Below are positions 2,127 to 42,839 of a stretch of DNA of 42,839 nt, piece after piece. Source of the DNA: a virus. Numbering within the stretch: position 1 is the stretch's first letter; the number at the start of each line of letters is the position of its first letter. The position numbers and the translations under genes are program-made. Under the pieces are notes generated by a model. That model saw only the letters and a program-made list of their open reading frames with translations, was not told the DNA's origin and made no database searches. The stretch lies in IMG/VR virus record IMGVR_UViG_3300040758_000113; one strand, 5' to 3'.

Positions 2127-2137
2127 ACTTTCCTCCT

Positions 2138-8496: not shown

Positions 8497-8550
8497 CTTG
8501 CGGTAAACGGGTATTAAATGATTACCGAACTCCTTATTAGAGGATTCCCA

Positions 8551-9675: not shown

Positions 9676-9822
9676 GAATCGGGAAATTGTAGTATTAGAC
9701 ATCATGCGCAGAGAATGCTCCATCAAGGGGATGTAACGGCGAGTGCATGGAATGTACCCAAAACGCCAACTATCACCCCCATCAGTAGTGATAACGCCAA
9801 CAAACACCGCCACAGGAGGATT

Positions 9823-24465: not shown

Positions 24466-24500
24466 AACTTCTTCCCGATTAAGGATTAGGAAGTTGTTTT

Positions 24501-25607: not shown

Positions 25608-25625
25608 AGCGTTACGTTACCTCTC

Positions 25626-26102: not shown

Positions 26103-26108
26103 GACTGG

Positions 26109-26126
26109 CCTCCTTTGTATAATACT
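26109..26126 (-). promoter_or_regulatory. AGTATTATA box + SD upstream of gene 25626-26102
   Basis: Minus strand: gcagtattatacaaAGGAGGccagtcATG. Confidence 0.3.
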
Positions 26127-26129
26127 GCG

Positions 26130-27147: not shown

Positions 27148-27701
27148 AAAGAAAGACGGCCATTCCGCCCCCCGAACGACCAGCAGAGGGAGAACGTCTT
27201 TACACCTAAATCCTCAAGGATGTTCCGTAGAGCAAGGATAACATCTTTGGAAGTATTCTCAATAAACGCCTGCCCATGTGGGAAATCCAAGAGTACGGGA
27301 AATTGTTGTCGAGAAGTAACAATAGAAGAATTGACCTGTTCTTCAATAACCTCCTTTTCCTTTTTAGCGAGGAACTTAAAGGGTCTTCCCATATTTCGGT
27401 AAGAGAGTGCCTCCTTTTTTGACATCGGGTCTTGAAGGTCTTTACCCCCGTTTACTATTAGCCAAAACCCATAACATCCATTACTCAATGAGAAGTCTAA
27501 GGCGGGGGGAACTTCCTTTTCCTCATCAAGGCGGGGGCTAAAGAAGGGATTTATGCCTATGCTTTCAGTTTCGGTTCCCTTAGTTTCAGCCAAAACCGTA
27601 GCTTGTAGAAACTCCTGAATATTACCACCATTAAGGTTGTTTTGAAAAACTGTAGAATCTGATTCTATGCCGAAGATAGCCCAGTTAGAATGTCCAAACA
27701 T
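27144..27701 (-). CDS. Hypothetical protein
   Basis: 185-aa ORF with ATGA overlap to the upstream gene. Confidence 0.4.
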   Translation of the reverse strand: MFGHSNWAIFGIESDSTVFQNNLNGGNIQEFLQATVLAETKGTETESIGINPFFSPRLDEEKEVPPALDFSLSNGCYGFWLIVNGGKDLQDPMSKKEALSYRNMGRPFKFLAKKEKEVIEEQVNSSIVTSRQQFPVLLDFPHGQAFIENTSKDVILALRNILEDLGVKTFSLCWSFGGRNGRLSF

Positions 27702-28249
27702 TTTTCCTCCTCATATTTCTTAAGGTATTCAGCCAATCCTAAAATTCTTTCCTTGTTCTCGTGTAAAAACCCCAAAGCAGCATTGCATCCATTACAGAGG
27801 ATTCCTCTCACTTTCAAAGTAGTGTGATTATGGTCTATTGACCAATCCCACCCCCTCCGCCCCGGTGAAGTAGAACCACACCCTAAGTTAGCACATTTTC
27901 TTCCCTGTAATTCAAACATTTCCTTTACTTTTTCTGGAGTTAACTTATATTGCCTTTTTAAAACGGAACGTCGGCGTATAAGCTTGTCTTTTTCTGTGTT
28001 ATTTTTTCTCCACCGACGAGTTTTAGCTGCAACCTTTTCAGGATTAGCAAGCCTCCACTTTTCAACAATATTTCGGCGACATATCTTACACCGCCTTCTC
28101 TTTCCTCCCGTTAAATTGTCTTCGGTTAACGGATGACCATATTTGCAGGTTAACCGAGAATTTATATACTTTTTACCTTTTCTACAGTTAGCATATTGGG
28201 CTAACCGCTGTTTTTGTTCTGCTGTTCTCTCATAAACCCCTGTAGGCAT
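27665..28249 (-). CDS. Endonuclease VII-family nuclease
   Basis: QGRKCANLGCGSTSPGRRGWDWSIDHNHTTLKVRGILCNGCNAALG. ATG at 28249 with GAGGGGG RBS (the track uses TTG at 28255). Confidence 0.65.
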   Translation of the reverse strand: MPTGVYERTAEQKQRLAQYANCRKGKKYINSRLTCKYGHPLTEDNLTGGKRRRCKICRRNIVEKWRLANPEKVAAKTRRWRKNNTEKDKLIRRRSVLKRQYKLTPEKVKEMFELQGRKCANLGCGSTSPGRRGWDWSIDHNHTTLKVRGILCNGCNAALGFLHENKERILGLAEYLKKYEEEKCLDILTGLSSA

Positions 28250-28323
28250 AATCAACCCCCTCTCTTTCTGATATAGGGGCTGATAGTCATTTTAATGAAA
28301 ATAACCAACCCAATCACTAAAGG

Positions 28324-28596
28324 CTATTTGACATTGGGGGCCTCCATTTCGCACTCTCCCGGACCGGGCTGTTGCGGACGGGGTGGTAACGTGGCATAGG
28401 GATAATGGTCATGACCATCCCTGCCCGTTTTGGGGTTAAAGTCCCGGTGGATGTCTTTGCGCTTCCACCACCATGGAGCATCCTTGGCTATGCCGATATG
28501 CCATCTGCCGGTGTTATCCTCCACGCACGTACCAGGGGTGGGAATGTTGCCTTCTCGATGGTCTTGCATCTTTACCAACCCATCCTCCAAGTACAC
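28324..28596 (-). CDS. Hypothetical small protein
   Basis: GTG start per the ORF track. Weak RBS. Confidence 0.3.
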   Translation of the reverse strand: MYLEDGLVKMQDHREGNIPTPGTCVEDNTGRWHIGIAKDAPWWWKRKDIHRDFNPKTGRDGHDHYPYATLPPRPQQPGPGECEMEAPNVK

Positions 28597-28674
28597 ATCA
28601 AAGCGGAGACCGCAGATACAGCAATCGAAATCCCTAGTCTCCCTTTGGAAATAGAGACTCTGGAACTGGTGACA

Positions 28675-30828
28675 TTAAGGGCACTCAATTAGTCCAAAGT
28701 CTCCGTCCCGATTAACCACGTACACTGTGCGAGACCACTGGACTTTGTTGCCGGAATAGAGTCCTTCACCGATGAGGATTTCCGGGCTGAATCCAAGACC
28801 AATAGACAGGTCAGAGTTGGTGTGCTGCCATTCTCCATCCAGAGATAGCAACCTACCATCTGAACCAATTTCATCCCACCGGGCCTCATAGTTCAACACG
28901 ACGCTGTAGTCCGGGTCGGCCTTGGCTTCGTCAATGTGCGCACGAAGAGCCATAACTTCGGCGGGCGGGATGTCAGGAGCAATGACTAACGTCTTGGGCG
29001 TCATGTTACGAGACGCCAACGTGGACTGCACTTGCCGCAGCTTTTCACGGTAGATGACTGTGCGGATACAACGCTGGAGGATAGAACGACCGTGAAGCTC
29101 GTAGTCACTCTTCTTGCGGGCGAAGTGGATGACGTAAGAACCCTCGAAGGGGTCCTTGTTCAAAGCAACTTTGCCGTCCGCTTCCAACATACCCTTGACT
29201 TCGGAATCGACCTCGGGGTCTTCAAGGTATGCGGTTTTCTGCTTTTCGAGCGGTTTATAGTATACGGTCGGCCCGGCTGTCATGCTGTCCCCGGCCTCAA
29301 GCTCTATCTGCTCGGGAGGAAGGACATTGATGGCATCAAAGCCCTCGTAGTCTTTATTCTCCAAGTGGGAGAAAAGCTCCTCTTCTTCCTTACGCTTCTC
29401 ACGGATTTCCTGCAACTCCTCCAAAACCTGCTTCTTTTTCTCCAACAGTTTGATGATGCGTTTGAGTTCGAGAAGCTCCTTTTGCTTGGCGAGGGTTGAC
29501 CCTTGGGCAATGGCATTCTGCACCGCACCCACTTGGTCGCCGGGGGTCGTCGGCTCGGGAGGCATTCCCCCTCCACCACCGCCTCCCATAGGGGGAAGCC
29601 CACCGCCTCCACCTAAATCTCCACCTAAATCTCCACCCAAGTCACCGGGAGGAAGGTCTCCACCGGGTTCTCCCATGGGGTCTACACCAGCAACGCCTTC
29701 CAACCCGGCGTCTCCCATCGGCGCTCCCTCTCCACCAGCGGGTGGGGGTGCGCCCGCATCAGGAGGAGCGGCGACCTTTACCTGAATAGGGTAGTCATCG
29801 TCAGCATCATCACGGGAGATGAGTTTAGATTCTTTATTGTCCATAGCCAGCTTGATGAAGCTCTTAATGCTGACCGCTTTCTTTGTGTAGCTGATTTTCT
29901 TCTTGCGGATTTCATTCTTGACGTTGGCAATGGTTTCATCGGGGGCGAAGAGATTGAACTTAATGCCTGCCTTCTTGATTTCACAGATAACAGCGGATTT
30001 CTTTCTAAGCCAACTTGAACGCTTCTCAGGCTGGAGGAAGTCCAAGATGGCATCCGATGTACCGCCCATCATGGAGCCTTCACCTTCCATGCCCGGCTCG
30101 GTGGACTGAGAATTAGAATGCTGCTTATTCTTAGCCTTCGCTTTTTCTAACTGAGCCTTTGCCAGCTTGGAAGGTTCAACGGGTTCGGCTTCCTGAATAA
30201 AGATGAAAGCCTCTCCGATAGTCCAATACTCCCGGACTGCCTGAATCAAAACCTGAAAGAACTTGGTGCCGCTGATGAGTCCCTGATAGAAGTCGTAAAC
30301 GTAGTCGGCAAAGTCATCACTGGAACACTTGGGCTTTTCTAATGCCCACTTGGACAGGGGAAGCTCGGTGTGCATGTCGATAGCACGTCCGACGATGGGG
30401 TCCCGGTCATAGGCAAGCCGATAGAACCGGAGTTCTTCCGCCCGGCTGGCTGGCAGTTCGAGGGCGTCTACGGGAAACTCGTAGCTGTAGTAACCAATGT
30501 TGTTGCTGTCGGCGATGTCGGCATTGCCGAGGGTGCCATCACTGAACAGAGCGGCGGTCTTGTTGCGGGTAAGTTCGTACATCCCCCATCCCTGCGCCCC
30601 AAAGGGAGAGCCTTGGGTCGCCATCTGGCGGACCCGGCTAACCAGAACGTCGGCAATCATTCCGTCGTTCGTCATACTGGTCCGGGGGCCTGCGGAGGCG
30701 TATTGCTTACCACCCTTGCTGGCAGCAACCTTTCGCTTTATTTCGGTGGTCCCCACACGCAAATTGGCTCCCCGTTCCCTCTTAACCAACACGCTCTTGG
30801 GGGTCGTCGTAGTTTTCTTTTCAACCAT
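28675..30828 (-). CDS. Large hypothetical protein with internal Gly/Pro/Asp low-complexity linker and coiled-coil segment
   Basis: 717 aa. ...GDLPPGDLGGDLGGDLGGGGGLPPMGGGGGGGMPPEP... followed by KQKELLELKRIIKLLEKKKQVLEELQEIREKRKEEEE. No enzymatic motif recognised. Confidence 0.5.
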   Translation of the reverse strand: MVEKKTTTTPKSVLVKRERGANLRVGTTEIKRKVAASKGGKQYASAGPRTSMTNDGMIADVLVSRVRQMATQGSPFGAQGWGMYELTRNKTAALFSDGTLGNADIADSNNIGYYSYEFPVDALELPASRAEELRFYRLAYDRDPIVGRAIDMHTELPLSKWALEKPKCSSDDFADYVYDFYQGLISGTKFFQVLIQAVREYWTIGEAFIFIQEAEPVEPSKLAKAQLEKAKAKNKQHSNSQSTEPGMEGEGSMMGGTSDAILDFLQPEKRSSWLRKKSAVICEIKKAGIKFNLFAPDETIANVKNEIRKKKISYTKKAVSIKSFIKLAMDNKESKLISRDDADDDYPIQVKVAAPPDAGAPPPAGGEGAPMGDAGLEGVAGVDPMGEPGGDLPPGDLGGDLGGDLGGGGGLPPMGGGGGGGMPPEPTTPGDQVGAVQNAIAQGSTLAKQKELLELKRIIKLLEKKKQVLEELQEIREKRKEEEELFSHLENKDYEGFDAINVLPPEQIELEAGDSMTAGPTVYYKPLEKQKTAYLEDPEVDSEVKGMLEADGKVALNKDPFEGSYVIHFARKKSDYELHGRSILQRCIRTVIYREKLRQVQSTLASRNMTPKTLVIAPDIPPAEVMALRAHIDEAKADPDYSVVLNYEARWDEIGSDGRLLSLDGEWQHTNSDLSIGLGFSPEILIGEGLYSGNKVQWSRTVYVVNRDGDFGLIECP
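29607..29642. repeat. 3 x 12-nt tandem repeat (ctccacctaaat) encoding the GDLGG repeats
   Basis: ctccacctaaat | ctccacctaaat | ctccacccaagt, read directly from the sequence. Confidence 0.6.
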
Positions 30829-30862: not shown

Positions 30863-31510
30863 TTACGATTTCGGCTCTTCCGTGGGTCTATCCACCGCCT
30901 CGCTGTTTCTGGGAAGTAGCCTAAAATGCTCCAAAATGACCTCGTTATCGAGGCCAACTGGCAACATCTCCAACGTCGGACTTCCGGCTCTTAGAATTCC
31001 AAACTCATTATTTTTCTTACGTTTATCCACAGACTCCTTGGCTATCCTCATCCGCACGGTGCGAGCCTTACGCCGCTCCTTTTCGAGTAATTCCTCCATC
31101 TGCACGGCATATTTGACTTTCTGGGCGGAAAGCTGCTCCAGACCATATAGGGAGGTTCCCACCATGGCGAGAACGGGAGAAATGTCAGTTTTGTCCTCCT
31201 CGTCCATGTTGTCAAGCAGCCGGGAGAGCCACTTCGCCGACTCCTTCATGGAGTTTAACGCTTGCACGGCACACCCCATCTGAGAATAGACCCGTTGGGA
31301 GTTTAGCCGAAGAAGTGCTCTCTTTTGAACTACTTCCGTCTCACCATCCTCCTTAACATCCAACTCTGCTCGGAATTTGAAGGGGAGTTCCCCCTCCTTC
31401 AATCCCATCTGTTTTCGGGTCTTAAAAGTCCTGACGGGAGAGTGAGCGCACCTGTGATGGTCGCCGTAGTAAGAGCTTCCGCATTTCGTGCATTTCTTGG
31501 TCATGTGCAT
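30863..31510 (-). CDS. Hypothetical protein with N-terminal zinc ribbon (CTKCG...H..C)
   Basis: 215-aa ORF. Confidence 0.4.
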   Translation of the reverse strand: MHMTKKCTKCGSSYYGDHHRCAHSPVRTFKTRKQMGLKEGELPFKFRAELDVKEDGETEVVQKRALLRLNSQRVYSQMGCAVQALNSMKESAKWLSRLLDNMDEEDKTDISPVLAMVGTSLYGLEQLSAQKVKYAVQMEELLEKERRKARTVRMRIAKESVDKRKKNNEFGILRAGSPTLEMLPVGLDNEVILEHFRLLPRNSEAVDRPTEEPKS

Positions 31511-31929
31511 TCTGCCTTCTCTAAGTATTGGATAGCGGCAATAAGAAACCTTCCTTCACCTAAAAGACCTATTCCCATATTGCAGGTTGGGCAAAGAAGT
31601 CCTCTAACTTTTCCAGTGTCGTGGTTATGGTCTAAATGACTTTTATTCCCTTGCACGGGGATGGGTTCTTTACATATCCCGCAGCATCTATTTTGTTTTT
31701 CCCACAAGATTTCTCGTTCTTCCAGTGTAATCCCATAGAGGTGATTATGGGTATACTTTTTCTGATGTTTATACCCCCATTTTTGATTTTTTTTCTTTTT
31801 GCAGAGCCGACAATAGGTTGCTCTACCGGAAGGTTCTCTCTTCAATTTTGAAAAAGCATCCAATGGGAGCCATGATGTACAAGCGGAACACCACTTTTCC
31901 TTATCATTGAATAATCGAAGTCTACCCAT
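31501..31929 (-). CDS. Endonuclease VII-family nuclease
   Basis: YGITLEEREILWEKQNRCCGICKEP...HLDHNHDTGKVRGLLCPTCNMGIG. Confidence 0.65.
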   Translation of the reverse strand: MGRLRLFNDKEKWCSACTSWLPLDAFSKLKREPSGRATYCRLCKKKKNQKWGYKHQKKYTHNHLYGITLEEREILWEKQNRCCGICKEPIPVQGNKSHLDHNHDTGKVRGLLCPTCNMGIGLLGEGRFLIAAIQYLEKAECT

Positions 31930-31965: not shown

Positions 31966-34900
31966 TTAGGCAGGTTTCTTGAGGTAATGTTCGGGAACGG
32001 AGTCCATGGCTCGGTCATGAAGGCACATCCGTATGCCATCATGAAGCACCCATACGGACTTGTCCCCCTTACCCAGAGTGATGTCGATTTGCATAAGGGT
32101 AAGCTGGTCGGCCCCGGAGATATCGTACACGGTTACACCGGGAGGGGGTCCCTTGGTTTCCGGTACTTGGGGGGTGGAATCTACCACGGGGGGAGCTACA
32201 GTGGGTTCTGGCGGGGCTACAGGGAGGTTCTCCGCTGCGACGAACAGATTGAGGGTACCTTGGGTACCCCCAACCCCTTCTGACGCTTCCTGTGGTGAAT
32301 TCCACGAAATCTCCACTTTCAGGGGTTCGGGGACATAGCGTTTCACCGGAGCGTCTAAGGGCAGAGAACCGAGAGGTCCATATATCAAAGCTGCCGGGTT
32401 ACGGTCAGCCGGTCCAAGGCCCATCCGAGTTTCGTACTGTTCCAAGGTCTCCAACTTCGCATCATCCTCGTCGGGCATATTGTCAATACGCCAGAATTCA
32501 TCAAGCTGAATAGCCGCTATGAGCGCCCGCTGGATTTCCTTGGGGTCGGTCTGAAGTACGACTTCTTTCTTCCCCTTCTTCTTGTTGAAGCACCACCAAG
32601 CCGCTTGGAAGGCCCGCTCGTGCAGGTTTTCCTTGAGGAAGGCTTTTGCCTTTTCGACCCGAGCTTCCACCTGCGAAGAGATGGCTTTTATCAGGTTCTT
32701 GATAGTCGCACTATCCCACTCGCCGGGGAGGTACCTGTCCATACCGGATACCCTTGTCCAAGCGGCGGGGATGTGGTCATCATCACCGGTCACATGGTGT
32801 TCAACGTCCCAACTGGATCCATATTCAGCATCCGCTTCGATGGGCACCTGCCACTTCATAATCTGGTGCAGCTTGCGCAACTTCATCATGCGAGTGATAC
32901 GGGGGAGAACGAAAGGCACGTATTCATTCTTCACGGAAAAGTCGATTTCATCGTGAACCGAACAATGCAACATGAAGATGGTTGCAATAAGCGGGTCTGC
33001 TTCAACCCACTGGCGAATCTTGTTGAGAGACATCCGCATGAAATCCCCGCAGAGTCCTTGAATGGGGGCATTAACGCTGACCCGCTGAATCTTGCCCATG
33101 AACTTGCTGTAGTCCATGGTATTGCGAACGCCAGTGTCGGGGTTCTTCCACATGGAGTTGGCAAGGTTGAGATACTCTTTCCACCGGGGGTCATCAGCTT
33201 CCCTAAGCTCCTTCGACTTTTTCATGTAATCCCGATACTGCCATAGGTTCTTCTTTTCCTCCTCGTTCGGGACATGAATGTGTAGCGCCTTCATGGCGGA
33301 GTCAAACTTGATGACTCGATTCGTAGTGGTGGTGCAAATGAGTTGGTCTCGGGCAATTGCTTGTTTGCGCTGGCAAAACTCGAAGAACACCGGCACGCCC
33401 TTCCAGTAGTTTTCCACCATTTCCTCGCACCGTTGGAAGGTGATGTTGGGGTCCTGCTTCTTCATGTTCTCGTAAATGGTGTAGGCGATACCGCCGTATA
33501 AAAGTGCAAAATTGATGATTTTTGCCAAGTCACGCAGGTGCTTAGCACGGTAGTTAGGACTCTTGGAGTCGGAGAACTCCGGGAAGACCTTGCTAGCAGT
33601 GAGGGAGTGGAAGTCACCCTTGCCATGCAAAAACTCATTGATGAATTCCGGCTCACCCGAGCAGTTGGCGGCGGCACGCATTTCGATATTGCCGTAGTCA
33701 ACGGTGAAGAATGTCCATCCGGGCGGCGAGTAGAACAAGCAGCGGAGATTGACTCTCTGGTTGGCATCAATCTTACCGTTCTCAATAAGGAAGCCAAACT
33801 TATCTTTGCAGGTCTGACAGCCCGGCACCAGACAAACGGTATAACCCATGTACTGACCCATATGATTATGGATAATACCGGGAGCCCGCTTTTTGACCTT
33901 GCGCTTGCCCATGGTAACGACGTGTTTAATCGTGGAACGGGGCTTACCATCAACCCAATCCCCGGCTGGCTCCGCCGCTACTTCCTCATCGTGCTCTTCA
34001 ACGATGTAACTCTCTTCCATCTCCCTGAAACATGAAGGGTGAAGCTCTTCCTCGGTGTGGGGTTCTATCTGGTCTTCGGGAATCTCATCGGGAATGAGGA
34101 CATTTCCCGTCACTTTCCACATCAAATAACCTTCCACCTTTTTCACAGCTTGGCTGTTAAGACCGAACCCACCATCCTTGTAAAAGTCACCGCCAGCGGA
34201 AGACAGGCGTCCCCCGGAGACCACATTCTGCTTGAGGTATATGCGGGCGGTGCCATCACTCGGGTCATAGTGGAGGCTGGAAGGGTGTAGGGAGATGTAG
34301 CTCTTGTAGTCTGAGAATACTTCGAGGAACTCATCCTCCGGGTGCAGCTTGTGGAGGTCTTCCACCACCTCGGCATCACACGAGGCTTTCTTCACGCCGC
34401 TCTTCCCACCATCCGTCATCTTGAGGGGAGCATATCCTTTGACATCAAAGAAAAGTATGCGCAGGTCGTCATTGGAATCGGGATTAAAACGGTCATGAGG
34501 TAACACCACACCGTCATCAGTGGCATTCTCTTTGTACCCAGCCGCTATGGCAAGGTCATACAGTTTCTTCTGAAATTGAGCGAGAACCCGTTGGTGCCCT
34601 TTGACAGTGCGAGTATGACGGTCGGTGTCGATAAGGAACCGCTGCCGTTCAATCCAAGTGATAGAGTCAACAAGCTCATGGTCGATGCGATGCACGGTCT
34701 TGCGGGTCCGGGCAAGGGGATGGAGCTTTTCCCATAGAAGCCAAGTACAAATGGCATCAGAGGCGGCGTAATAGAGAGCGATGTCTACGGGTATCCAACT
34801 GAAAGGAACAAAGTGCTGCTTAAGCCCGTGCTTATTCTCTTTCTTCTGCTCCAACGTGCAGGAGCAGAAAGGAGAGCCATTGTGGGGACAAGTATCCGCC

Positions 34901-35661
34901 TTGACCTTGGCGATTTCCTCAAGCTCGATTTGCTCAATACCCAGCAGGTTGCTGGACAACGCCTTCAAGCCGCCGCTATCCCCCGTATAGAACTGCTTGT
35001 CTTCCATGTCAGCTTTGGGGTCATCAATGTATTGCAAAACCTGCACATCTTCAAAGTGAGGATAAGGACGAAAGACAATGCCCATGGTGAGGCGCATGAC
35101 TTCCCGGTCGAATTTCCCATTGTAAAAAACAAGGTGTACCTGATTGAAGAACGGCTGGAGAATCTCAGCGCATATCCTGCGGTCTATGTTGCGGGCCGGG
35201 GTGGTGAGAGCAAGGTCCTGAAACTCATGGGTGATGGGGATGTATATGCCCTTGACACCATCGGCAGAGAGACAGATGCCGGAAATATCGGTCTTGATTT
35301 CATACTCTTGGTGGTAGGAGCCATCAGGCAGCTTCACCATCCTGATAAAGAGCCGGGTGTCAAGGCTCACGTCTTCCGTATCCAAAGCCACAACTGGTTC
35401 GGTGACCCCGTAAAACTCAAAGCGGGGAGCATTGGTGAGAACCTCGTCAACCCACTTCTGTAGGGCTTCGGGCGTATCGACAATCTCGAACGCCTTCTTA
35501 CTCATCCAGTCTTTTTTGACTTTGGCTACACCACCGCCAGCGGAAAGCTCGGCAAGAATCTCCCGGAACATGGTGCGAATGTCCCGGAGCTTGACGACTT
35601 TCTTCTTCTTAACCTTCTTCAAATCGTCGGTGGTGACTTTTTCTTTCTTAACCTTTGCCAT
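31966..35661 (-). CDS. Family A DNA polymerase with 3'-5' proofreading exonuclease
   Basis: Exo I ALDTED, Exo II FYNGKFDREV, Exo III YYAASDA. Pol motif A VDYGNIEMRAAA, motif B RAKHLRDLAKIINFALLYGG, motif C SVHDE. Confidence 0.85.
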   Translation of the reverse strand: MAKVKKEKVTTDDLKKVKKKKVVKLRDIRTMFREILAELSAGGGVAKVKKDWMSKKAFEIVDTPEALQKWVDEVLTNAPRFEFYGVTEPVVALDTEDVSLDTRLFIRMVKLPDGSYHQEYEIKTDISGICLSADGVKGIYIPITHEFQDLALTTPARNIDRRICAEILQPFFNQVHLVFYNGKFDREVMRLTMGIVFRPYPHFEDVQVLQYIDDPKADMEDKQFYTGDSGGLKALSSNLLGIEQIELEEIAKVKADTCPHNGSPFCSCTLEQKKENKHGLKQHFVPFSWIPVDIALYYAASDAICTWLLWEKLHPLARTRKTVHRIDHELVDSITWIERQRFLIDTDRHTRTVKGHQRVLAQFQKKLYDLAIAAGYKENATDDGVVLPHDRFNPDSNDDLRILFFDVKGYAPLKMTDGGKSGVKKASCDAEVVEDLHKLHPEDEFLEVFSDYKSYISLHPSSLHYDPSDGTARIYLKQNVVSGGRLSSAGGDFYKDGGFGLNSQAVKKVEGYLMWKVTGNVLIPDEIPEDQIEPHTEEELHPSCFREMEESYIVEEHDEEVAAEPAGDWVDGKPRSTIKHVVTMGKRKVKKRAPGIIHNHMGQYMGYTVCLVPGCQTCKDKFGFLIENGKIDANQRVNLRCLFYSPPGWTFFTVDYGNIEMRAAANCSGEPEFINEFLHGKGDFHSLTASKVFPEFSDSKSPNYRAKHLRDLAKIINFALLYGGIAYTIYENMKKQDPNITFQRCEEMVENYWKGVPVFFEFCQRKQAIARDQLICTTTTNRVIKFDSAMKALHIHVPNEEEKKNLWQYRDYMKKSKELREADDPRWKEYLNLANSMWKNPDTGVRNTMDYSKFMGKIQRVSVNAPIQGLCGDFMRMSLNKIRQWVEADPLIATIFMLHCSVHDEIDFSVKNEYVPFVLPRITRMMKLRKLHQIMKWQVPIEADAEYGSSWDVEHHVTGDDDHIPAAWTRVSGMDRYLPGEWDSATIKNLIKAISSQVEARVEKAKAFLKENLHERAFQAAWWCFNKKKGKKEVVLQTDPKEIQRALIAAIQLDEFWRIDNMPDEDDAKLETLEQYETRMGLGPADRNPAALIYGPLGSLPLDAPVKRYVPEPLKVEISWNSPQEASEGVGGTQGTLNLFVAAENLPVAPPEPTVAPPVVDSTPQVPETKGPPPGVTVYDISGADQLTLMQIDITLGKGDKSVWVLHDGIRMCLHDRAMDSVPEHYLKKPA

Positions 35662-35678: not shown

Positions 35679-36359
35679 TTAAATTACCTTTCCATCGGCG
35701 ATTGCCGTCAACTCTTCCTTGCCCAGCACTTCGGCAAGCCCTACCGTGGCTTGCAAGTGCAACTCCTGTGGGTCTACCTCATCGCTCCTCTCCGCATCCT
35801 TGGCGCTCTTTTCCAGCGTCAACCCAGTGAAGTAGATGCGGATGTAGTCTTCGGCAAGCTCCGCATCCTTGGTTTCCTGAACATCTCGTTGCGCCTTCAA
35901 AATAAAGTGCTCCGCAAGGTCCCAGAAGCTTAAAACACCACCCTCTTCTTCCTCGTCGTCAACCAGCATATTAGGTATGGAGGGAAGGTTGAAGGTTTTT
36001 TCCAGCCAGTAAAGAGCCTGCACCCGGCTGAGTTCCATATACTTGGATACAAAGGTTACATTGTCATACAACATGCTGCCGGGCGGACATCCAAAGCAAT
36101 AAGCGTCATTGGTGCGGGAATAGAGGGTAAAAGACGGCGTGCGGTCACGACCATGAAAGGGGCAGCGGATGACCGTATCACGATGACCGGTAAGCTCCGC
36201 TACGACATCCTGAAACGGGATTTCGTTGTTGGCTCGTTCCCACCGGTCAGGATTGATGCCCCCATATGAGCTACGATAGAAGTTTTGAACGGCATCCCGC
36301 TCAAGACTAACCTCCTGCCCGACAAGCTCTTCGATTGCCGGAAGCTGTTCATTTTCCAT
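35679..36359 (-). CDS. DnaG-type CHC2 zinc-finger protein (primase zinc-binding domain, stand-alone)
   Basis: CPFHGRDRTPSFTLYSRTNDAYCFGCPPGS matches CPFHxExTPSF...CFGCG. No TOPRIM domain in this ORF. Confidence 0.55.
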   Translation of the reverse strand: MENEQLPAIEELVGQEVSLERDAVQNFYRSSYGGINPDRWERANNEIPFQDVVAELTGHRDTVIRCPFHGRDRTPSFTLYSRTNDAYCFGCPPGSMLYDNVTFVSKYMELSRVQALYWLEKTFNLPSIPNMLVDDEEEEGGVLSFWDLAEHFILKAQRDVQETKDAELAEDYIRIYFTGLTLEKSAKDAERSDEVDPQELHLQATVGLAEVLGKEELTAIADGKVI

Positions 36360-36655
36360 TACTGTGCCTGTTGAAATTGTTCGTAGTCTTTGAGCAAAGA
36401 CTCACCGTTCTCAAGGGAGGCCATGAGGCTACTCAGGTTCTTTTCCAACTCCAACTGGGTATCCTCGGCGAGCTTCTTAAGCTCCTCCACCGACAGACGC
36501 TCGGGGTTGCTGATGTTAAGTGCCCGGAGGTTATCATGGACCTGCTTGAGCTTCTGCTCCTCAACCCCCACTTCCCGGTTAAGCTGGTCTCGTTTGCCTG
36601 CCAAGGTTTTCACTCTTGCTTGAGCAGTGCGCAACTGTTCTTGGATGTCGGGCAT
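36359..36655 (-). CDS. Hypothetical coiled-coil protein
   Basis: 98 aa, heptad-rich. TAATG overlap with the downstream zinc-finger gene. AGTATTATAgtgAGGAGG element upstream. Confidence 0.4.
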   Translation of the reverse strand: MPDIQEQLRTAQARVKTLAGKRDQLNREVGVEEQKLKQVHDNLRALNISNPERLSVEELKKLAEDTQLELEKNLSSLMASLENGESLLKDYEQFQQAQ

Positions 36656-36660
36656 GTAAT

Positions 36661-36678
36661 CCTCCTCACTATAATACT
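36661..36678 (-). promoter_or_regulatory. AGTATTATA box + SD upstream of gene 36359-36655
   Basis: Minus strand: ttagtattatagtgAGGAGGattacATG. Confidence 0.3.
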
Positions 36679-36694
36679 AATTCCGGCTGGACCT

Positions 36695-37351
36695 TTAAGG
36701 TCTAATCCACTCAAATTTGAGTATATTCAACAGTCGAATTTGATGGGGGGTGGGGTCAATATCATCTTCGCATAAAAAGGTCCCCCAGCATGTACCATCG
36801 CATAACTTCCAAAGGTCTTGGCGAGAACCCCGATGAAACATCAGGGCCAGCCTAAAGGAGATGTGACGTGAAGCATCCTCCTTACGATAACTGAAATCTG
36901 CAAGAAAATACTTCCCCTTTGGGACATCCTCCGTAAGGACAGTGTATGCATTCAAACCATCAAGAGAGAAACTAAACTGAAAGAGCGCCGGGGAGTCTTT
37001 CCGTCTGTCAAATATGGAAACTGTGTTGTGTTTGAAGCAAGGGTGACCGTTGTGCATCACCCACGGATTGTCGCTCCGCTTTTCATCTCTAATTTCCACA
37101 TCCCCCGTCACCCACTTACCCTCGGGATGACGTGGTCCTAGATAAACCTGAACATCGCCAAGTCCAACTTCACGGAGTTTTTTTGCCCAGATTTCCCGTT
37201 GGGACAGGAATTCAATTAAGGCAGATTTTCCGGGGTTATCATATGCATCATAATCCTTATCCCGAAAATCAGCGCCCTCAAGTTTTCCCATATCTACCTC
37301 GATTCCGGTTGACAAGACGGGCAGCATAGCTCCGTACCACAGTCCGGGCAT
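36695..37351 (-). CDS. Hypothetical protein
   Basis: 218-aa ORF. No ATPase signature motif seen. Confidence 0.4.
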   Translation of the reverse strand: MPGLWYGAMLPVLSTGIEVDMGKLEGADFRDKDYDAYDNPGKSALIEFLSQREIWAKKLREVGLGDVQVYLGPRHPEGKWVTGDVEIRDEKRSDNPWVMHNGHPCFKHNTVSIFDRRKDSPALFQFSFSLDGLNAYTVLTEDVPKGKYFLADFSYRKEDASRHISFRLALMFHRGSRQDLWKLCDGTCWGTFLCEDDIDPTPHQIRLLNILKFEWIRP

Positions 37352-39564
37352 TTCGGTTTGGATTCCTTGGACAGAAGCAACGTCAAAGAGTTAACCTTGG
37401 CGTTAGCGGCGTCCAGTTCCTCTTCCGTAAACTTAAGCTCACTCTTCTTGCTGGGGAGCTTCAATGCCTCTGCCAACAAGTTGATGTTCTTAAGCGCCGA
37501 GAGGTAGTGAGCAATGACTCCGAGTAGGAAGTTGGCTTCTTGTAGCACACCCTCTAACTTCTCCCCGCACTCCTTGGGGCTTGCTCCCTTTCTTTCGACA
37601 ATTTCCAACAGGGATAGAACCGCCTGCTTGCGTTTGTACCCCTTAGCCACAAGGTCCCACTGGACTATAGTATTGTCAATGCCATGTACCACCTGTCCCG
37701 TGACTTCCCGGCGACGGAGGATTTTTACCGCCTCGGCATACATCCGGGCGAGGCGCTCCTGTTTCTCAATGGGGGATACATCCGGCACAGACAGCTTGAG
37801 GATGAAGGACCGCATCTTCGCTATCCGATTCGTCCTTGTAAGTGTCTCGGTCAGCGAGGCCAACAATGACTCATAGCTGTTGACCTTTGCCTCATAACCA
37901 GACACGGTGTGGGCGGAGTCCTGTGCCGAGGCATTAAACCTCTCAAGTTTACCCCGGCGTTCCTCTGCCTCACGGATTTCTTCGGCGAGCGTTCGGGCTT
38001 CCCCGTTCTTTTCGGTAATGCGCCGGTTGGCTTCCTTCTTCCCTGCATCCAATTTTTCGGTAGAGGCAAAGGCCCCAAGGATGGCATTCAGGTCGTTGGG
38101 CTTCCATGCGTCGGGGTCAATGAGGAATTGTGCCTTGTTCTGTTGAGAAAAGATGGGGTCTATGGTTGTGTCCCCCACTTTGACGGTGCCATACTTGAGC
38201 ACCTTCATGGGTTCGGGGACACTATCGCCGAGAGCCTTATACTCTATCGGCTTACCCTTTTCATCTTCACCAATGGCGTACTTGGTGGAACCCTTGCGGG
38301 TCCGGGTGGCCCTGATGGGGTCGTTGACACCCTCAACCTCAAGAGTCACTTCCATCTTCTCATCCTGTCCATTACGGACAAAATCCTGCGGGAGTTCATT
38401 GCGGAATACCCCCCGCAGGGCACGGAAGATGGAGCTATTATGAGTTATAGTAAAATCACCAAGAAGAAAAAGCCCATCCCCGCTCAACTCAAATCCGAAA
38501 TATTCTCCCCACCCTTTATGCTTTATTTTAAACCCCGTTGTTAAACAAGATTTTTTGGATTGCGATAATGCCTTTTTTCGCTTTATGATAGTAGGAATAC
38601 TAGGCAAATTCCCGAAAATTAAAACCGTATGGTATATCTTATTGTATCGTTTGTTTAACTTAGGAGAAATAGATGCCCTAAACCCGAGAGACCTCGCTAA
38701 AAATGCCACTTGTTTAGCAAGTCGCTCAAACTGCGAACAAAAGGCAAATTGAGACGGTTCTAATCCAGCATCAGAATCTAGCAACCCAGCCAATAGTAAA
38801 AGTCTATCTTCCCTTGAGCCAACCAGATAGCTATGTGGTATGCATTTTCCGTCTGCATCCACCAACTTTAACAACCGGAAACGGTTAAGAAGGGCATTAC
38901 TTCGACTTCCTTTATGTTTAGTAGAAAATCGGTAGGAATCATCATCATTGGGTATAAGATGGAGACCATACTTGGTGGCAAGTTTTCGACAATAGTTTAC
39001 AACCTCAAGGTCGGCGGTTGTTACTTCTAATTTATGTAAATCGGTGGTACCATCGCCAAGCCAATAGCCCACCAAATAAGGTTCAAATTTTTTATCTACC
39101 CGGCACTTAAAATCTATACCTCCCGAACGATGCAAACGGGCATTCCGTTTATAGGTAGCACTTTTGGAAAGAAAGTCCTTAACTGAAATCTCCACCCTGC
39201 ATTGTCTTAACTGTAAGGGACTGAGACGACGTTTTTTTCCATCTAATCGGCAAATCAAGGACAAAATGTGATACTGATTACACCCCCAAGAACCATCGAA
39301 GCCCCCTTTATTGGGCAAAACCTCATACATATCATCAAACCCGTGGGAAATACTAAGAACGGTGCGAGGCGTGCTATCCGGCCCCATAAGAAAGTCACCT
39401 ACACCTATGTTCTTTGCTAATTTATTTGTCCCGTCATACATAAGAACAGGAGTATTTGGAGCAAGACACTTACCCTTATTCGACGGTCCGACAATCAATG
39501 TCAACCCGTCCACAATAAGGGAGAAATCTTTCCATGGTTGAAAATTCTTACCGGATAGTTTCAT
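37294..39564 (-). CDS. SbcC/Rad50-like P-loop ATPase (N-terminal ATPase lobe + coiled coil ending in CxxC...CxxC), interrupted by an intein in the Walker A motif
   Basis: Spliced N-terminus would read MKLSGKNFQPWKDFSLIVDGLTLIVGPSNKGK|SSIFRALRGVF, the canonical Rad50/SbcC start with GxNGxGKSSI. Long coiled-coil. Ends KCPDCGTELCCPSCQ. Confidence 0.65.
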   Translation of the reverse strand: MKLSGKNFQPWKDFSLIVDGLTLIVGPSNKGKCLAPNTPVLMYDGTNKLAKNIGVGDFLMGPDSTPRTVLSISHGFDDMYEVLPNKGGFDGSWGCNQYHILSLICRLDGKKRRLSPLQLRQCRVEISVKDFLSKSATYKRNARLHRSGGIDFKCRVDKKFEPYLVGYWLGDGTTDLHKLEVTTADLEVVNYCRKLATKYGLHLIPNDDDSYRFSTKHKGSRSNALLNRFRLLKLVDADGKCIPHSYLVGSREDRLLLLAGLLDSDAGLEPSQFAFCSQFERLAKQVAFLARSLGFRASISPKLNKRYNKIYHTVLIFGNLPSIPTIIKRKKALSQSKKSCLTTGFKIKHKGWGEYFGFELSGDGLFLLGDFTITHNSSIFRALRGVFRNELPQDFVRNGQDEKMEVTLEVEGVNDPIRATRTRKGSTKYAIGEDEKGKPIEYKALGDSVPEPMKVLKYGTVKVGDTTIDPIFSQQNKAQFLIDPDAWKPNDLNAILGAFASTEKLDAGKKEANRRITEKNGEARTLAEEIREAEERRGKLERFNASAQDSAHTVSGYEAKVNSYESLLASLTETLTRTNRIAKMRSFILKLSVPDVSPIEKQERLARMYAEAVKILRRREVTGQVVHGIDNTIVQWDLVAKGYKRKQAVLSLLEIVERKGASPKECGEKLEGVLQEANFLLGVIAHYLSALKNINLLAEALKLPSKKSELKFTEEELDAANAKVNSLTLLLSKESKPKCPDCGTELCCPSCQPESR
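38437..39468 (-). mobile_element. Intein (344 aa) with LAGLIDADG homing-endonuclease domain, inserted after the Walker-A Lys
   Basis: N-terminal splice junction GK|CLAPNTPVLMYDG (Cys1). LAGLIDADG blocks LVGYWLGDGT and LAGLLDSDAG. C-terminal FTITHN|S (His-Asn plus +1 Ser). Boundaries checked codon by codon: 39468 = Cys1, 38437-38439 = terminal Asn. Confidence 0.7.
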
Positions 39565-39866
39565 TTGTAAATAACCTTGATGTTATGAACGACAACCCAA
39601 ATGTAAACTGCTATCAGGATAGAAAGTGTGATATCCACCCCTGGGGCACCCCTCACACCGACAATGAAAATCCCAGCCGCAATGGTGCTTAAGGCTAAGA
39701 CCTTCACCACAATAATTCCAGGAATACTGCCGATTTTACACATCAACCAAGATGCAATGGGGTTTACCTCCTCATTTTCCGTTTTCTTAAGTCCCATATA
39801 GGTAGTTATCCCATCAGAGATATTAAGAACTACAAGGACCAAAAACAGTAAAATAAAAAGAGCCAC
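39561..39866 (-). CDS. Small membrane protein (3 predicted TM helices)
   Basis: MALFILLFLVLVVL..., ...GIIVVKVLALSTIAAGIFIVGV..., ...ITLSILIAVYIWVVV. Conserved-looking DGITTYMGLK...E.NPI segment. ATGA overlap with the Rad50-like gene. Confidence 0.45.
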   Translation of the reverse strand: MALFILLFLVLVVLNISDGITTYMGLKKTENEEVNPIASWLMCKIGSIPGIIVVKVLALSTIAAGIFIVGVRGAPGVDITLSILIAVYIWVVVHNIKVIYK

Positions 39867-39872
39867 GCCACC

Positions 39873-41210
39873 TCACTTAAGTTCGTCTATCTCTGTTACT
39901 GCATTTTCAAGAGATTCTGCGGTGGGGACTTCACCAAAATCTTCCTCATCGGGGTAGCTCCCCGCTGGCTCTTCGAGGAATGCCTTTTCCGCTTCACTGA
40001 GACCTTCACCCTTGAAGCGCTCGGTTTCATCGTGCTCCACGGCATCCAAAACCATGCCCTTGAGCTTCCCGAGAACCTCCGGGTTTTGCTTGATAACGAG
40101 GTCTTCGACAAGCTCTGTTTTGCTGGCATAGGTGATGATGGCGTCGTCGGCGGACTTGCCGACAAACCACTTCTTTTTGTCGTACTCAATGAAGCCATAC
40201 CCGCAGGCAAGCTCCCGGATGCTCATGTTCTCGTCAATGCCGAAGTTGGGCCTGACGTAGACGAAGGCTTCCCGGTAGCCGCCGCCCGTCACCTTGTTCT
40301 TGAGGGAGCGAACCCGGACCTTGTTAGCGGTCGGGTAGTTTTTGAGCACTTCACCCATGGGCTGGATGAGAAGCCACTGTTCTTTTTTGTCCGGCATCTT
40401 ATCCCAACTCCACGGCTTGATTTCCGTTTCCAGAATGAGTTCCAGCATCACGCTGGGAGCAAACCTCGCCATATATCCGCCCGGCAGGCTGTATTCCCGG
40501 TTAGTGTAACTCCAGTGGGAAGCGTTCTCCGCATCGTCGTCCATACGGGCACGAGTCTGGTTAATGATGGTCAGGTGGGCATCCTGCTCCATAAGGTGAG
40601 GAGTGAGAAACTTGTAGAACGTGGTGATGCCCTTAGCATGGCTTCCGTAGTTAGCCCGGAATGCTTTGCCGCTTTCAATATCCTTAAGCTCCACCTTCAT
40701 CTGCATGAACGGGATGGAGTCATCCACGAAGTAGCGGATACCATATTTGGTGAGAAGCTGAATATGCCGCTTGATGGACTCTTGCAAGTTGGACGGCTGC
40801 TCGAAGAAACAGAGGTCGGGGTCAACACCGAGAGCGTAAGCGTACTGGGCGCTAATGGCCGGTTCGTACTCGAAGATAGCGATGGGTTCACCGGTTGCTT
40901 GCTGGTAATTGGCGGCGTTTACAAAGGCAGTGGTGGTCTTGCCAGCGCCCTCATTGCCGTGTATCTGCGTAATGCGTCCGCCTCGGGCGATACCGCCGAG
41001 CCGTAGAACCTTGTCAAAGACGAAGTGACCATAGGGAACAAGGATTTCCTGAAAGTCCTTGCCGTAGATACGATGGTCGGACTTCGTATCCTTGCGCAAG
41101 TAAGCAAGGGCATTACGCCGCTGTTCCACCGTCCAAGTCCGGGGACTGCCAGTCGGCATTTCAAAATTGAGTTCCTTTTCCTTCTTCTTCTTTGCGGCTG
41201 CCTTTGCCAT
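39873..41210 (-). CDS. RecA/UvsX-family recombinase
   Basis: GGIARGGRITQIHGNEGAGKTTTAF (RecA Walker A/L1 region). 445 aa with an extended acidic C-terminus. Confidence 0.75.
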   Translation of the reverse strand: MAKAAAKKKKEKELNFEMPTGSPRTWTVEQRRNALAYLRKDTKSDHRIYGKDFQEILVPYGHFVFDKVLRLGGIARGGRITQIHGNEGAGKTTTAFVNAANYQQATGEPIAIFEYEPAISAQYAYALGVDPDLCFFEQPSNLQESIKRHIQLLTKYGIRYFVDDSIPFMQMKVELKDIESGKAFRANYGSHAKGITTFYKFLTPHLMEQDAHLTIINQTRARMDDDAENASHWSYTNREYSLPGGYMARFAPSVMLELILETEIKPWSWDKMPDKKEQWLLIQPMGEVLKNYPTANKVRVRSLKNKVTGGGYREAFVYVRPNFGIDENMSIRELACGYGFIEYDKKKWFVGKSADDAIITYASKTELVEDLVIKQNPEVLGKLKGMVLDAVEHDETERFKGEGLSEAEKAFLEEPAGSYPDEEDFGEVPTAESLENAVTEIDELK

Positions 41211-41947
41211 TATTCCTCCTGTGATAGAATACTGAGATGAACTGCCATTTTTCTTATATGATTCAAAAACTCTTCATAGGAAAGTTGTTGTTTTGCCCAA
41301 TTACATATACGACAACAAGGAACTACATTGCCCGGAATATATCCCTTATGGATATCTTTCCTATCAATCCCATTGTAGGGCAGCTTTCCATTATTGTAAA
41401 GACGACGGGTAACCGCTTCATTGCTGGGGGGTGCTCCACAATAATGGCAGGGTTGAAAAATTAAACTCAAGAATAATTCTTTCTCTAGCCCCCATTTCAA
41501 TCCCCTAGACTTAGCACTGGTCTTATACTCACGGTATACCCGTCCACTCAGAAACTCTTTGGGTTCTAAAAGATTGGCATAGCGCCGACACCCACAACTA
41601 GTAGTGCGGGATAAATTATTGGTACTTACAGGTAAAATCTTTCCACAAACACACAGGCACTTCCAAAAAACCCGGTTTTTTTCAACATGGTCTAGTTCTT
41701 GTACCTCCAAAAAACCAAACCTTTTACCGGAAAGGTCTTTGAAATTCCATGCTTTTCTGGTGGGAAAAGGTACACACCCGCAACTCCCAGTTTTCTTTTG
41801 AGTAAGATTGGAACCGTATACCGGTTTCTCAGTTCCACATCTACATCGGCATTGATAAACTCCCCGACCTTTGTAAGATATGACAAACCACAACCCAAAT
41901 GTTTTCCCAACCAAATGACGGGCCTTAGATTTGGTACTCACACACAT
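41210..41947 (-). CDS. HNH endonuclease with zinc-ribbon repeats (paralog of 11196-12020 / 16446-17033)
   Basis: CHYCGAPP...YNGIDRKDIHKGYIPGNVVPCCRICNWAKQQ. Repeats YQCRCRCGTEK...CGCV and WKCLCVCGKI...CGCRR. The track start at 41974 overlaps the RuvC gene by 50 nt, so the ATG at 41947 is preferred. Start uncertain. Confidence 0.55.
   Translation of the reverse strand: MCVSTKSKARHLVGKTFGLWFVISYKGRGVYQCRCRCGTEKPVYGSNLTQKKTGSCGCVPFPTRKAWNFKDLSGKRFGFLEVQELDHVEKNRVFWKCLCVCGKILPVSTNNLSRTTSCGCRRYANLLEPKEFLSGRVYREYKTSAKSRGLKWGLEKELFLSLIFQPCHYCGAPPSNEAVTRRLYNNGKLPYNGIDRKDIHKGYIPGNVVPCCRICNWAKQQLSYEEFLNHIRKMAVHLSILSQEE
41213..41234 (-). promoter_or_regulatory. AGTATTCTA variant box + SD upstream of recA/uvsX-like gene
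   Basis: Minus strand: tcagtattctatcacAGGAGGaataATG. Confidence 0.3.
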
Positions 41948-42827
41948 CGAGTTTTCGTTCCGTTGAGCTTGCATCCCTACTCAAGAATTTGAAAGTTAAT
42001 TTTTGATACTCATAGAAATACTCAGGACGATGCAAAACTCCTGCCGTTACGAAATGTTGATTACGCCCCTTGCCCTTGGAGATTTGGGCGGAGTTGCAAA
42101 GTGACTGGAGGACCCTCTCCGGGATTTCACGAGGCCGACCGAGCAATATGCTGGATACATACCGCCCCATCATCGCCAACAGAACGGCGTCACAGGAATC
42201 AGGGTCCAGAGCCGGAAACCGGGTCTTGTCAATAAACTCGTAAGCCTTGAGGATGTTCTCTTTCTTATTGGTAGTTCCCCGCTGGGACAGGCCCATGAGG
42301 CTACGCAAGGTGCTGGCATTGATGGAGAGAATCTTTACCACGGCAAACTTCTTCCACAAGTCTCCATCGAACAGAACAAGATGCATAATACGGTTCAATG
42401 CCACAAGGTAATCGTTGGTCGGCGTGGGATGCTCCGTGGCAATGAGCAGACCCATGGTATGAATGGGAGTGACGCTGGGCTGCCCATTGTTTATGGCAAG
42501 AAAATCCTCGAACTTGATGGTTGTGGCCGCTTCACTGAGACGTTCCTTGAGGAACAGGGAGATACCCTTGCTGCGAATCCAAATGGGGTCTTTGGAAGAA
42601 TCCGGCTTGACACTGCCCACCTGTGTCCAATCAGCGTAGGTACCGAACATGCCCGCCGTGCGTCCGCATTCCTCACAAGGGTGGGATACATGGCTGAGAC
42701 ATCCGGGATGCTCACAGGGTTGGCCTTTGTGGGGGTCTTCGGGCAGGATGACATGCATCATCGCATACCCGGTGCGGGAGAGGCTGGGGTCCAACCCCAT
42801 GACAAGCCAATGGTCCACGTCCGGCAA
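41925..42827 (-). CDS. RuvC-like Holliday-junction resolvase with inserted Cys/His zinc module
   Basis: LVMGLDPSLSRTGYAMM (RuvC motif I, catalytic Asp). ...DSCDAVLLAMM (motif IV-like). Insert CEHPGC...HPCEECG. The track start is a TTG at 42827. The frame is open to the window edge, so the true start may lie at 42800 (ATG) or beyond 42839. Confidence 0.6.
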   Translation of the reverse strand: MPDVDHWLVMGLDPSLSRTGYAMMHVILPEDPHKGQPCEHPGCLSHVSHPCEECGRTAGMFGTYADWTQVGSVKPDSSKDPIWIRSKGISLFLKERLSEAATTIKFEDFLAINNGQPSVTPIHTMGLLIATEHPTPTNDYLVALNRIMHLVLFDGDLWKKFAVVKILSINASTLRSLMGLSQRGTTNKKENILKAYEFIDKTRFPALDPDSCDAVLLAMMGRYVSSILLGRPREIPERVLQSLCNSAQISKGKGRNQHFVTAGVLHRPEYFYEYQKLTFKFLSRDASSTERKLDVCEYQI

Positions 42828-42839
42828 GGCTTCCGGGAA

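Follow-up and report, generated by a model that had tools for sequence, protein, structure and literature searches.

A predicted PI-SceI-type LAGLIDADG intein in the P-loop of a phage SbcC/Rad50-like N-half subunit

The clustering of inteins in P-loops is documented (Novikova et al. 2016, PMC4760082), and the position between the lysine and the threonine of this motif (K|T) is termed "classic" for inteins of the P-loop (Kelley et al. 2016, PMC5050341). The mycobacteriophage intein TerL1-a and the inteins DnaB-b, MCM-a and RFC-a occupy a GK|[S/T] position (PMC5050341, PMC4760082) identical to that of the element described here. This element was found in IMG/VR virus record IMGVR_UViG_3300040758_000113, a stretch of 42,839 nucleotides (nt) henceforth referred to as the window, where a 1,032-nt insert interrupts the Walker A P-loop of an SbcC/Rad50-like gene on the minus strand. 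A host of the Rad50/SbcC family is not mentioned in the main texts of the two papers cited above, and a literature search returned no "Rad50 intein", "SbcC intein" or similar phrase; both results are absence of evidence only.

The best-matching structure is PI-SceI, the VMA1 intein of S. cerevisiae. The two elements share a two-domain architecture, a Cys at position 1, an NxxH block B and a C-terminal His-Asn. Sequence identity between them is ~20%, and the window intein is the shorter of the two at 344 amino acids (aa) compared to 454 aa. The residue that follows the window intein (+1) is Ser, whereas that of PI-SceI is Cys, and the host is a phage SbcC-like subunit rather than the A subunit of a V-ATPase, with the insertion lying within Walker A itself.

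The insert, its junctions and its anatomy

The host open reading frame (ORF; 37294-39564, minus strand) encodes a 756-aa precursor that comprises the N-half subunit of a split phage SbcC/Rad50-like ATP-binding cassette (ABC) ATPase and the intein. The N-extein (39469-39564, minus strand; aa 1-32) ends with the Walker A sequence GPSNKGK (nt 39489-39469). The intein (38437-39468, minus strand) occupies ORF aa 33-376 and combines a Hint domain with a double-motif LAGLIDADG domain of the PI-SceI type. It is followed by a C-extein of 380 aa (37297-38436, minus strand) that begins with Ser+1 and goes on to a conserved segment containing Gln, a long coiled coil and a tail resembling a Zn hook.

The insertion is in frame and falls between Lys32 (AAG) and the Ser of Walker A (GPSNKGK|S). 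The N-terminal junction reads ...LTLIVGPSNKGK|CLAPNTPVLMYDG..., with GPSNKGK before the cut and Cys1 after it, and the C-terminal junction reads ...LFLLGDFTITHN|SSIFRALRGVF..., with GDFTITHN ending the intein. The Ser+1 codon, AGC (38436-38434), completes Walker A and is also the position of the +1 splicing nucleophile. Removal of the insert gives a 412-aa host protein with GPSNKGKSSIFRAL restored, plus the 344-aa intein. An earlier note, made from the letters of the window alone, had claimed an intein at 38437-39468 without giving a strand. Its coordinates match the 344 codons exactly, both of its quoted junctions read identically in the minus-strand ORF, its two LAGLIDADG blocks (LVGYWLGDGT and LAGLLDSDAG) are present at intein aa 132-141 and 226-235, and its expected lengths of ~412 aa for the host and 344 aa for the intein agree with the sequence.

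Homologues were searched for with the spliced 412-aa sequence as the query, which gave 139 matches, 120 of them listed. All 120 measure 302-488 aa and are free of Hint and homing-endonuclease domains. The closest full-length homologues among the matches listed, P0001 (97% identity, 412 aa) and P0002 (90%, 411 aa), have uninterrupted N-termini that read MKLAGKNFQPWKDFSLLIDGLTLIVGPSNKGKSSIFRALRGVF. The genomic loci of empty alleles were also compared (L002, on a 364-kb contig, and L003-L006), and alignment of the window with the empty sites of L002, L004 and L006 left the insert as a clean gap of 1,032 nt, its ends on codon boundaries. When the full ORF was aligned by MAFFT with intein-free homologues, the N-termini of the latter fell at the end of the intein; this was rejected as an artefact, the junction being decided at the DNA level. 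Megablast of window positions 36000-42839 against GenBank phages gave no match, and there is no close sequenced isolate.

There is next to no probability that members of this ATPase family normally contain the insert as a domain, or that it stems from a chimeric assembly; nothing was found in favour of either. Its boundaries are exactly codon-aligned at a canonical Cys1 and His-Asn|Ser, and besides the 120 listed homologues free of Hint and endonuclease domains, 76 of 79 IMG/VR loci of the host family lack it. Alignment with intein-less homologues, which the earlier note had put forward as a check, thus finds the insert absent from relatives and refutes the native-domain reading. The identification of the element as an intein is virtually certain.

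Domain profiles and fold comparison agree with the homologue alignment in placing a LAGLIDADG intein in the Walker A P-loop, as the earlier note had proposed. Pfam matches on the intein were Hom_end_hint (1.1e-14), LAGLIDADG_3 (1.1e-8) and Hom_end (4.3e-5). A phmmer search of the PDB returned PI-SceI at 1e-10, aligned from Cys1 through the terminal His-Asn with both LAGLIDADG motifs paired. The AlphaFold2 model of the intein has a mean predicted local distance difference test score (pLDDT) of 93.2 and a predicted template modelling score (pTM) of 0.92. Foldseek matched this model to PI-SceI with E=1.8e-28 and a template modelling (TM) score of 0.77-0.79, followed at lower rank by TliVMA, PhoVMA, PI-PfuI, the Prp8 inteins and I-DmoI (E ~4e-6).

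Conservation was measured in an alignment of the window intein with 54 relatives. Block A (39430-39468, minus strand) reads Cys1-LAPNTPVLMYDG and aligns to PI-SceI residues 1-52. Block B (39268-39279, minus strand) is N64-Q-Y-H67, an NxxH motif. LAGLIDADG motif 1 (39046-39075, minus strand) contains the candidate catalytic Asp139 and is paired with LLGLWIGDGL of PI-SceI, while motif 2 (38764-38793, minus strand) contains the candidate catalytic Asp233 and is paired with LAGLIDSDGY. Blocks F and G (38437-38505, minus strand) read EYFGFELSGDGLFLLGDFTITHN, with a penultimate His343 and a terminal Asn344 where PI-SceI has ...VVVHN. Invariant residues are C1, T6, G29, R35, H67, Y131, G134, G138, D139 and G140 and, in the C-terminal part, L226, A227, G228, R259, L261, Y323, G325, H343 and N344; N64, D231 and D233 are at least 90% conserved. 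Position 234 in motif 2 is Ala in the window intein compared to Gly in at least 90% of relatives. All class-1 splicing residues (C1, N64, H67, H343, N344 and Ser at +1) are present. Taken with the modelled fold, these residues make the insert very probably a canonical class-1 intein of the PI-SceI type with an embedded double-LAGLIDADG homing endonuclease.

From the conserved residues we infer the following course. The 756-aa precursor would fold, an N-S acyl shift would take place at Cys1, and the thioester would be transferred to the hydroxyl of Ser+1. Asn344 would then cyclise, aided by His343, and an O-N shift would give the 412-aa subunit with an intact P-loop and the free 344-aa intein. 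The endonuclease would cut intein-free alleles at the P-loop site in co-infecting relatives, and recombinational repair would copy the intein and neighbouring extein sequence into the cut allele. A splicing-competent intein is highly likely, and the chance that the endonuclease is still active is judged to be somewhat better than even.

The host subunit and its partners

The spliced protein contains the Walker A sequence GPSNKGKS, a segment with invariant Gln131 and Gln135, ~230 residues of long helices (residues 158-389 in the host model) and a C-terminal CPDC-x4-CCPSC. This last element (37312-37350, minus strand) resembles a zinc hook or zinc ribbon and forms the end of the N-half subunit; C395, C398 and C404 (extein numbering) are conserved in 61 homologues. 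Profile matches to the Rad50 zinc hook were weak (1l8d, E=0.13; 6zff, E=0.11), and the hook lies at the C-terminus of the polypeptide, not mid-protein.

The best Foldseek matches to the model of the host N-lobe were the heads of Rad50 (9a9j, 1f2u), SMC and RecN, with E from 7e-5 to 3e-3; Smc5/6 and RecF heads, GajA and PtuA were also matched. A host-family profile search matched the N-termini of OLD-family ATPases and of Rad50. Intein-free homologues carry AAA_23 and AAA_15 and the source name "SbcCD ATPase subunit", and the host gene adjoins RecA/UvsX and RuvC-like genes. The PHROG matches to "terminase large subunit" cover residues 23-301, that is, the intein and the P-loop; a terminase identity was rejected because these matches are intein-driven, reflecting intein-containing terminases.

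No signature motif, Walker B, D-loop or H-loop was found in the host ORF or in the homologues examined (302-488 aa), all of which end at the hook. The host is thus most aptly regarded as one part, the N-half subunit, of a split SbcC/Rad50-like enzyme and not as a full-length Rad50/SbcC. Of the earlier note's "Rad50/SbcC-like ATPase", the fold class is upheld by the Foldseek heads, while the complete ATPase is not, the ORF encoding the N-terminal half only. Because the P-loop is split by a foreign protein of ~39 kDa, the unspliced subunit should be unable to bind ATP until it is spliced, and it is reasonable to expect from the insertion position that ATPase activity depends on splicing, as had been claimed.

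Published descriptions of split phage SbcC were searched for, with no relevant result. In relatives, the C-lobe with the signature, Walker B and H-loop is a separate protein of 205-236 aa, and five phage genomes were found to encode both an N-half and such a separate C-lobe. In gp8 of Bacillus phage 0305phi8-36, the homologous N-half is joined to an Mre11-like nuclease, and the protein terminates with CPTC. The 92-aa gp7 of this phage is a coiled-coil protein, and its 236-aa gp5 combines a coiled coil with a DSRGGG signature-like motif, a Walker B (IILDEP) and an H-loop (VTHQP). The layout in phBC6A51 (BC1852-BC1857) is likewise modular, with a 518-aa "SbcC", two small ORFs, a 211-aa "chromosome segregation ATPase" and SbcD. 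Microbacterium phage Magritte has a modular N-half/C-lobe arrangement too, as does LR745208, an uncultured phage of 485 kb. The nearest isolate homologue of the host is gp181 ("exonuclease", 42.6% identity) of Tunturiibacter phage Tunturi_5, Tunturiibacter being a genus of Acidobacteriota. The window phage is in all likelihood a large phage related to this Acidobacteriota jumbo phage.

The split modules of 0305phi8-36 (gp8/gp7/gp5), phBC6A51 (BC1852-BC1857) and Tunturi_5 (gp181/gp180/gp14/gp177) share an N-half with Walker A, coiled coil and terminal CxxC, a small coiled-coil ORF of ~77-100 aa, and a C-lobe with an RGGG-type signature, hhLDE and the H-loop VTH. They differ from the window in that their N-halves have no intein and that the window has no nearby C-lobe. 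In addition, the N-half of 0305phi8-36 is fused to its Mre11-like nuclease, unlike that of the window.

A hidden Markov model (HMM) of the C-lobe identified Tunturi_5 gp14 ("ATPase", 221 aa; E=1.5e-35), which lies ~108 kb from gp181, and, in 23 of the 79 IMG/VR loci, a C-lobe that follows the N-half at a distance of at most 2.5 kb. In the window, no C-lobe was detected by motif scan, by tblastn with 0305phi8-36 gp5 and Tunturi_5 gp14, or by HMM, and motif scan, tblastn and HMM detected none in the flanks of close relatives. The C-lobe profile search matched 427 proteins, and none of the 120 matches listed comes from the contigs of the closest relatives; Tunturi_5 gp14 as a query against metagenome contigs found no C-lobe either. 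Presumably, the C-lobe of the window phage is encoded outside the 43-kb window. The ORF at 36695-37351 (minus strand; 198/218 aa) was dismissed as a candidate for the missing C-lobe, since it lacks ABC motifs, has no Pfam or PHROG match and does not occur at this position in L006. This ORF lies between the host gene and the 98-aa ORF described next, its likely true start is at 37291 (198 aa), and its GC content at third codon positions (GC3) is 0.45. It is found in the window and L002 but not at that position in L006 or Tunturi_5, and it may be another mobile or accessory gene.

Two other potential partners were identified. The conserved 98-aa coiled-coil ORF (36359-36655, minus strand) follows the N-half gene in L002, L006 and Tunturi_5 (gp180); it is the positional counterpart of 0305phi8-36 gp7 and a probable accessory subunit. 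A 459-aa ORF at 9715-11094 (plus strand) is a candidate SbcD/Mre11-like nuclease, with a PHROG 284 ("exonuclease") match of E=3e-46, phosphoesterase-like motifs (DWHIG, GDWVSGD, ADNHGR, EHGD, GHWH) and no Pfam match. It lies ~26 kb from the SbcC-like N-half, directly downstream of an HNH homing-endonuclease gene, and its product is a putative SbcD/Mre11-type partner. SbcD adjoins the N-half in Tunturi_5, phBC6A51 and LR745208.

Flanks, distribution and relatives of the intein

The composition of the intein differs from that of its host. Its GC content is 0.407 and its GC3 is 0.352, compared to 0.539 and 0.651 for the C-extein. Core neighbours (RecA, RuvC-like, PolA, primase and the 98-aa ORF) have GC3 values of 0.59-0.67. 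Other insertions specific to the window are AT-rich too, with GC3 of 0.365 for an HNH gene, 0.364 for an EndoVII-type gene and 0.44 for a DUF5658 gene.

Divergence from the empty allele L002 is concentrated around the insertion. The N-extein is 79% identical over the 97 nt compared, yet 29 of 32 amino acids are the same. Differences per 10 codons are 7, 6 and 6 upstream of the junction and 4, 5, 3, 2, 2, 0, 1, 0 and 0 downstream of it, and nearly all extein differences near the insertion are synonymous. Over the first 80 extein codons 35 of 240 nt differ (14.6%), compared to 28 of 999 (2.8%) in the rest (Fisher p=5e-11). The C-extein part of this co-conversion-like tract spans 38287-38436 (minus strand), along which the count of differences from L002 per 10 codons falls from 4-5 to 0-1. 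Such a flank pattern is what transfer of the intein from a more distant donor, with co-conversion of the adjoining extein DNA, would be expected to leave. The window appears to record acquisition of the intein from a more diverged, AT-richer donor.

The upstream end of the transferred segment is not defined, because the genome is mosaic and the DUF5658 gene is inserted before the start codon. This 101-aa ORF (39561-39866, minus strand; Pfam 3.4e-12) lies between the RecA stop and the host-gene start, and its stop overlaps the host ATG (ATGA). L002 and L006 lack it and have 4-7 nt in its place. The DUF5658 ORF may have been brought in along with the intein and the N-extein segment.

It is very unlikely that the interrupted gene is dead, whether through a splicing-incompetent intein or through pseudogenisation of the host gene. 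The lack of a detected C-lobe partner in the window would fit such a gene, but the 756-codon ORF is intact with all catalytic splicing residues conserved, and the 2.8% of C-extein nucleotides that differ from L002 outside the tract are mostly synonymous changes. L046, another allele that bears an intein, likewise has an intact ORF.

An intein occurs at the same site in three of the 79 IMG/VR loci of the host family, as two distinct sequences. These loci, on metagenomic phage contigs from IMG/VR and ENA, are L046 and L047 (allele at 1319-3679 in both), which carry the same intein as protein P0121, and L037 (allele at 1370-3658). All share the host family and the site GPSxxGK|C...HN|S, and RecA lies upstream at the P0121 locus as it does in the window. 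Their inteins are 352 aa (L046/P0121) and 355 aa (L037) in length and 51% and 47% identical to that of the window. Sporadic distribution, foreign composition and the co-conversion-like tract lend indirect support to site-specific cleavage and homing by the predicted endonuclease.

Several observations weigh against a functional, recently homed element in a working ATPase. The Ala234 substitution could mean that the endonuclease is weakened or dead. Upstream RecA is ~91% identical to L002 and the downstream region ~98%, which are different mosaic backgrounds, and part of the flank asymmetry may stem from ordinary phage recombination rather than from homing. No close relative of the intein was found, the best identity among 5.8 billion proteins being at most 51% and none being present in IMG/VR. 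Lastly, as the window has no C-lobe partner, a functional ATPase is assumed by analogy with relatives.

Some of these points bear on an alternative that is possible, albeit doubtful, namely that the intein splices while its endonuclease is inactive or decaying, so that it is a resident, vertically inherited element late in the homing cycle. Consistent with this, Ala234 replaces a near-invariant Gly after the second candidate catalytic Asp, and near-identical copies of the intein were not found. The inteins of other lineages at the site are 47-51% identical compared to 52-57% for the exteins (first 150 C-extein residues), as would fit long residence. However, the endonuclease domain is full length and retains both LAGLIDADG Asp residues and the other near-invariant positions, its model has a pLDDT >90, and the closest relatives of the host (97% and 90%) are intein-free. 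The foreign composition and the decaying synonymous tract also argue for a fairly recent gain.

The best relative of the intein in the 5.8 billion proteins is that of P0121/L046 (49-51% identity, same host family), followed by that of L037 (47%); all remaining relatives are at most ~45% identical. The 398 significant matches lie in very different P-loop NTPases: PhoH, AAA_24, DEAD/ResIII, ABC_tran, UvrD, DnaB, thymidine kinase, AAA_33, AAA+, KaiC-like, SNF2, terminase and RecA proteins. Relatives of 33-44% identity occupy GK|[S/T], as in the window, in PhoH, DnaB, thymidine kinase, ABC, terminase, RecA, DEAD/ResIII, UvrD, SNF2 and AAA+ hosts. Among 112 full-length relatives, an xK|[S/T] junction was observed in 86, of which 82 are GK|[S/T] (GK|T in 48 and GK|S in 34) and four are other xK|[S/T]; a neighbouring P-loop position (PG|[ST] or SG|S) is used in 25 and RE|C in one.

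The L037 intein is 59% identical to the PhoH intein P0122 compared to 47% to that of the window. Because it is nearer to the PhoH intein, more than one invasion of the SbcC N-half site, or movement between host genes, is hinted at. A broader reading would make the window a recent step in the cross-host spread of a single PI-SceI-type "P-loop intein" family that hops between non-homologous P-loop NTPase genes; this is considered unlikely. It is similarly unlikely that, as such hopping would entail, the endonucleases recognise DNA encoding GxxxxGK[S/T].

The block B environment bears on a different proposal. A Cys directly precedes the block-B Asn in the window (Cys63), in P0121/L046 and in a subset of relatives, and conditional splicing is documented for inteins, at P-loops and elsewhere, of DnaB, RadA and RecA. 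Since the insertion position would make host activity strictly dependent on splicing, the intein could serve as a conditional switch by which the phage delays or gates its SbcC-like end-processing ATPase, for instance by redox control through Cys1 and Cys63. Gating of the assembly or activation of the split ATPase is a further possibility. A switch is nevertheless quite improbable. The phage lineage does not need the intein, because most family members, the closest included, are without it, and the composition and flank pattern indicate a selfish, recently acquired element.

Neighbouring genes and implications

Several other mobile-type genes were observed in the window. An HNH/EndoVII-like endonuclease gene (41210-41974, minus strand; PHROG 374, 8.5e-24; AT-rich, GC3 0.365) lies between the RuvC-like and RecA/UvsX genes and is missing from L002 and L006, which have ~83 nt there. 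Six further homing-type nuclease genes are present at 31501-31929, 27665-28255, 12386-13039 and 23716-24465 (minus strand) and at 19889-20614 and 8518-9675 (plus strand), comprising three Endonuclease_7, two HNH and one GIY-YIG/NUMOD3 gene; the one at 31501-31929 is not in L002 or L006. The 43 kb thus hold a total of seven free-standing homing-type nuclease genes plus the intein.

Another intein was observed in the family-A DNA polymerase of L006 (375 aa, L006 14256-15375; ...EMRAAAN|CLAGETK...GLLTGN|CSGEPEF). The corresponding site is empty in L002 and in the window (~33666, after aa 665; gene 31966-35661). The polymerase is 1231 aa in the window, 1386 aa in L002 and 1607 aa in L006. The L002 protein has ~155 extra residues near window PolA aa 557-583 (L002 14522-15111 vs window 33887-34011), a variable insert that does not look intein-like.

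Gene order differs between the window and L002, though the two are otherwise 93-98% identical. Relative to L002 19823-20334, window positions 24467-28736 contain ~4.2 kb that have no L002 counterpart at that place and that encode a clamp-loader-like gene, a weak NUDIX-like ORF, a gp23-like pair and an EndoVII-type gene. The pair (26497-27147 and 27144-27701, minus strand) jointly matches the 465-aa Tunturi_5 gp23, an "exonuclease recombination-associated protein". The two matches overlap in different frames at ~27174-27246, indicating a frameshift that is a sequencing error, a pseudogene or programmed. Elsewhere, a 1085-aa ORF (2782-6039, minus strand) has an N-terminal GNAT acetyltransferase match (1e-6) and a weak SprT-like match, the rest being unannotated.

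The kind of element described here is well known, and current understanding is not overturned. The contribution lies in a host class new to the classic P-loop site, in matched filled and empty alleles and in the split architecture of the host enzyme. For annotation, the ORF is to be read as a single precursor in which an intein interrupts an SbcC-like N-half subunit, not as a terminase and not as a 756-aa ATPase. For intein biology, the Rad50/SbcC class joins the hosts with the classic Lys|Ser/Thr P-loop insertion. The natural empty-site alleles (97% and 90% identical), together with the graded synonymous tract, offer a convenient system for homing, co-conversion length and target recognition. 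Should the intein family indeed hop between P-loop NTPase genes, the matched filled and empty pair (97% identical) would make ectopic homing directly testable. The genome region is densely colonised by homing-type nucleases, and in this group of large phages the SbcC-like ATPase is made of separate N-half, small coiled-coil and C-lobe polypeptides.

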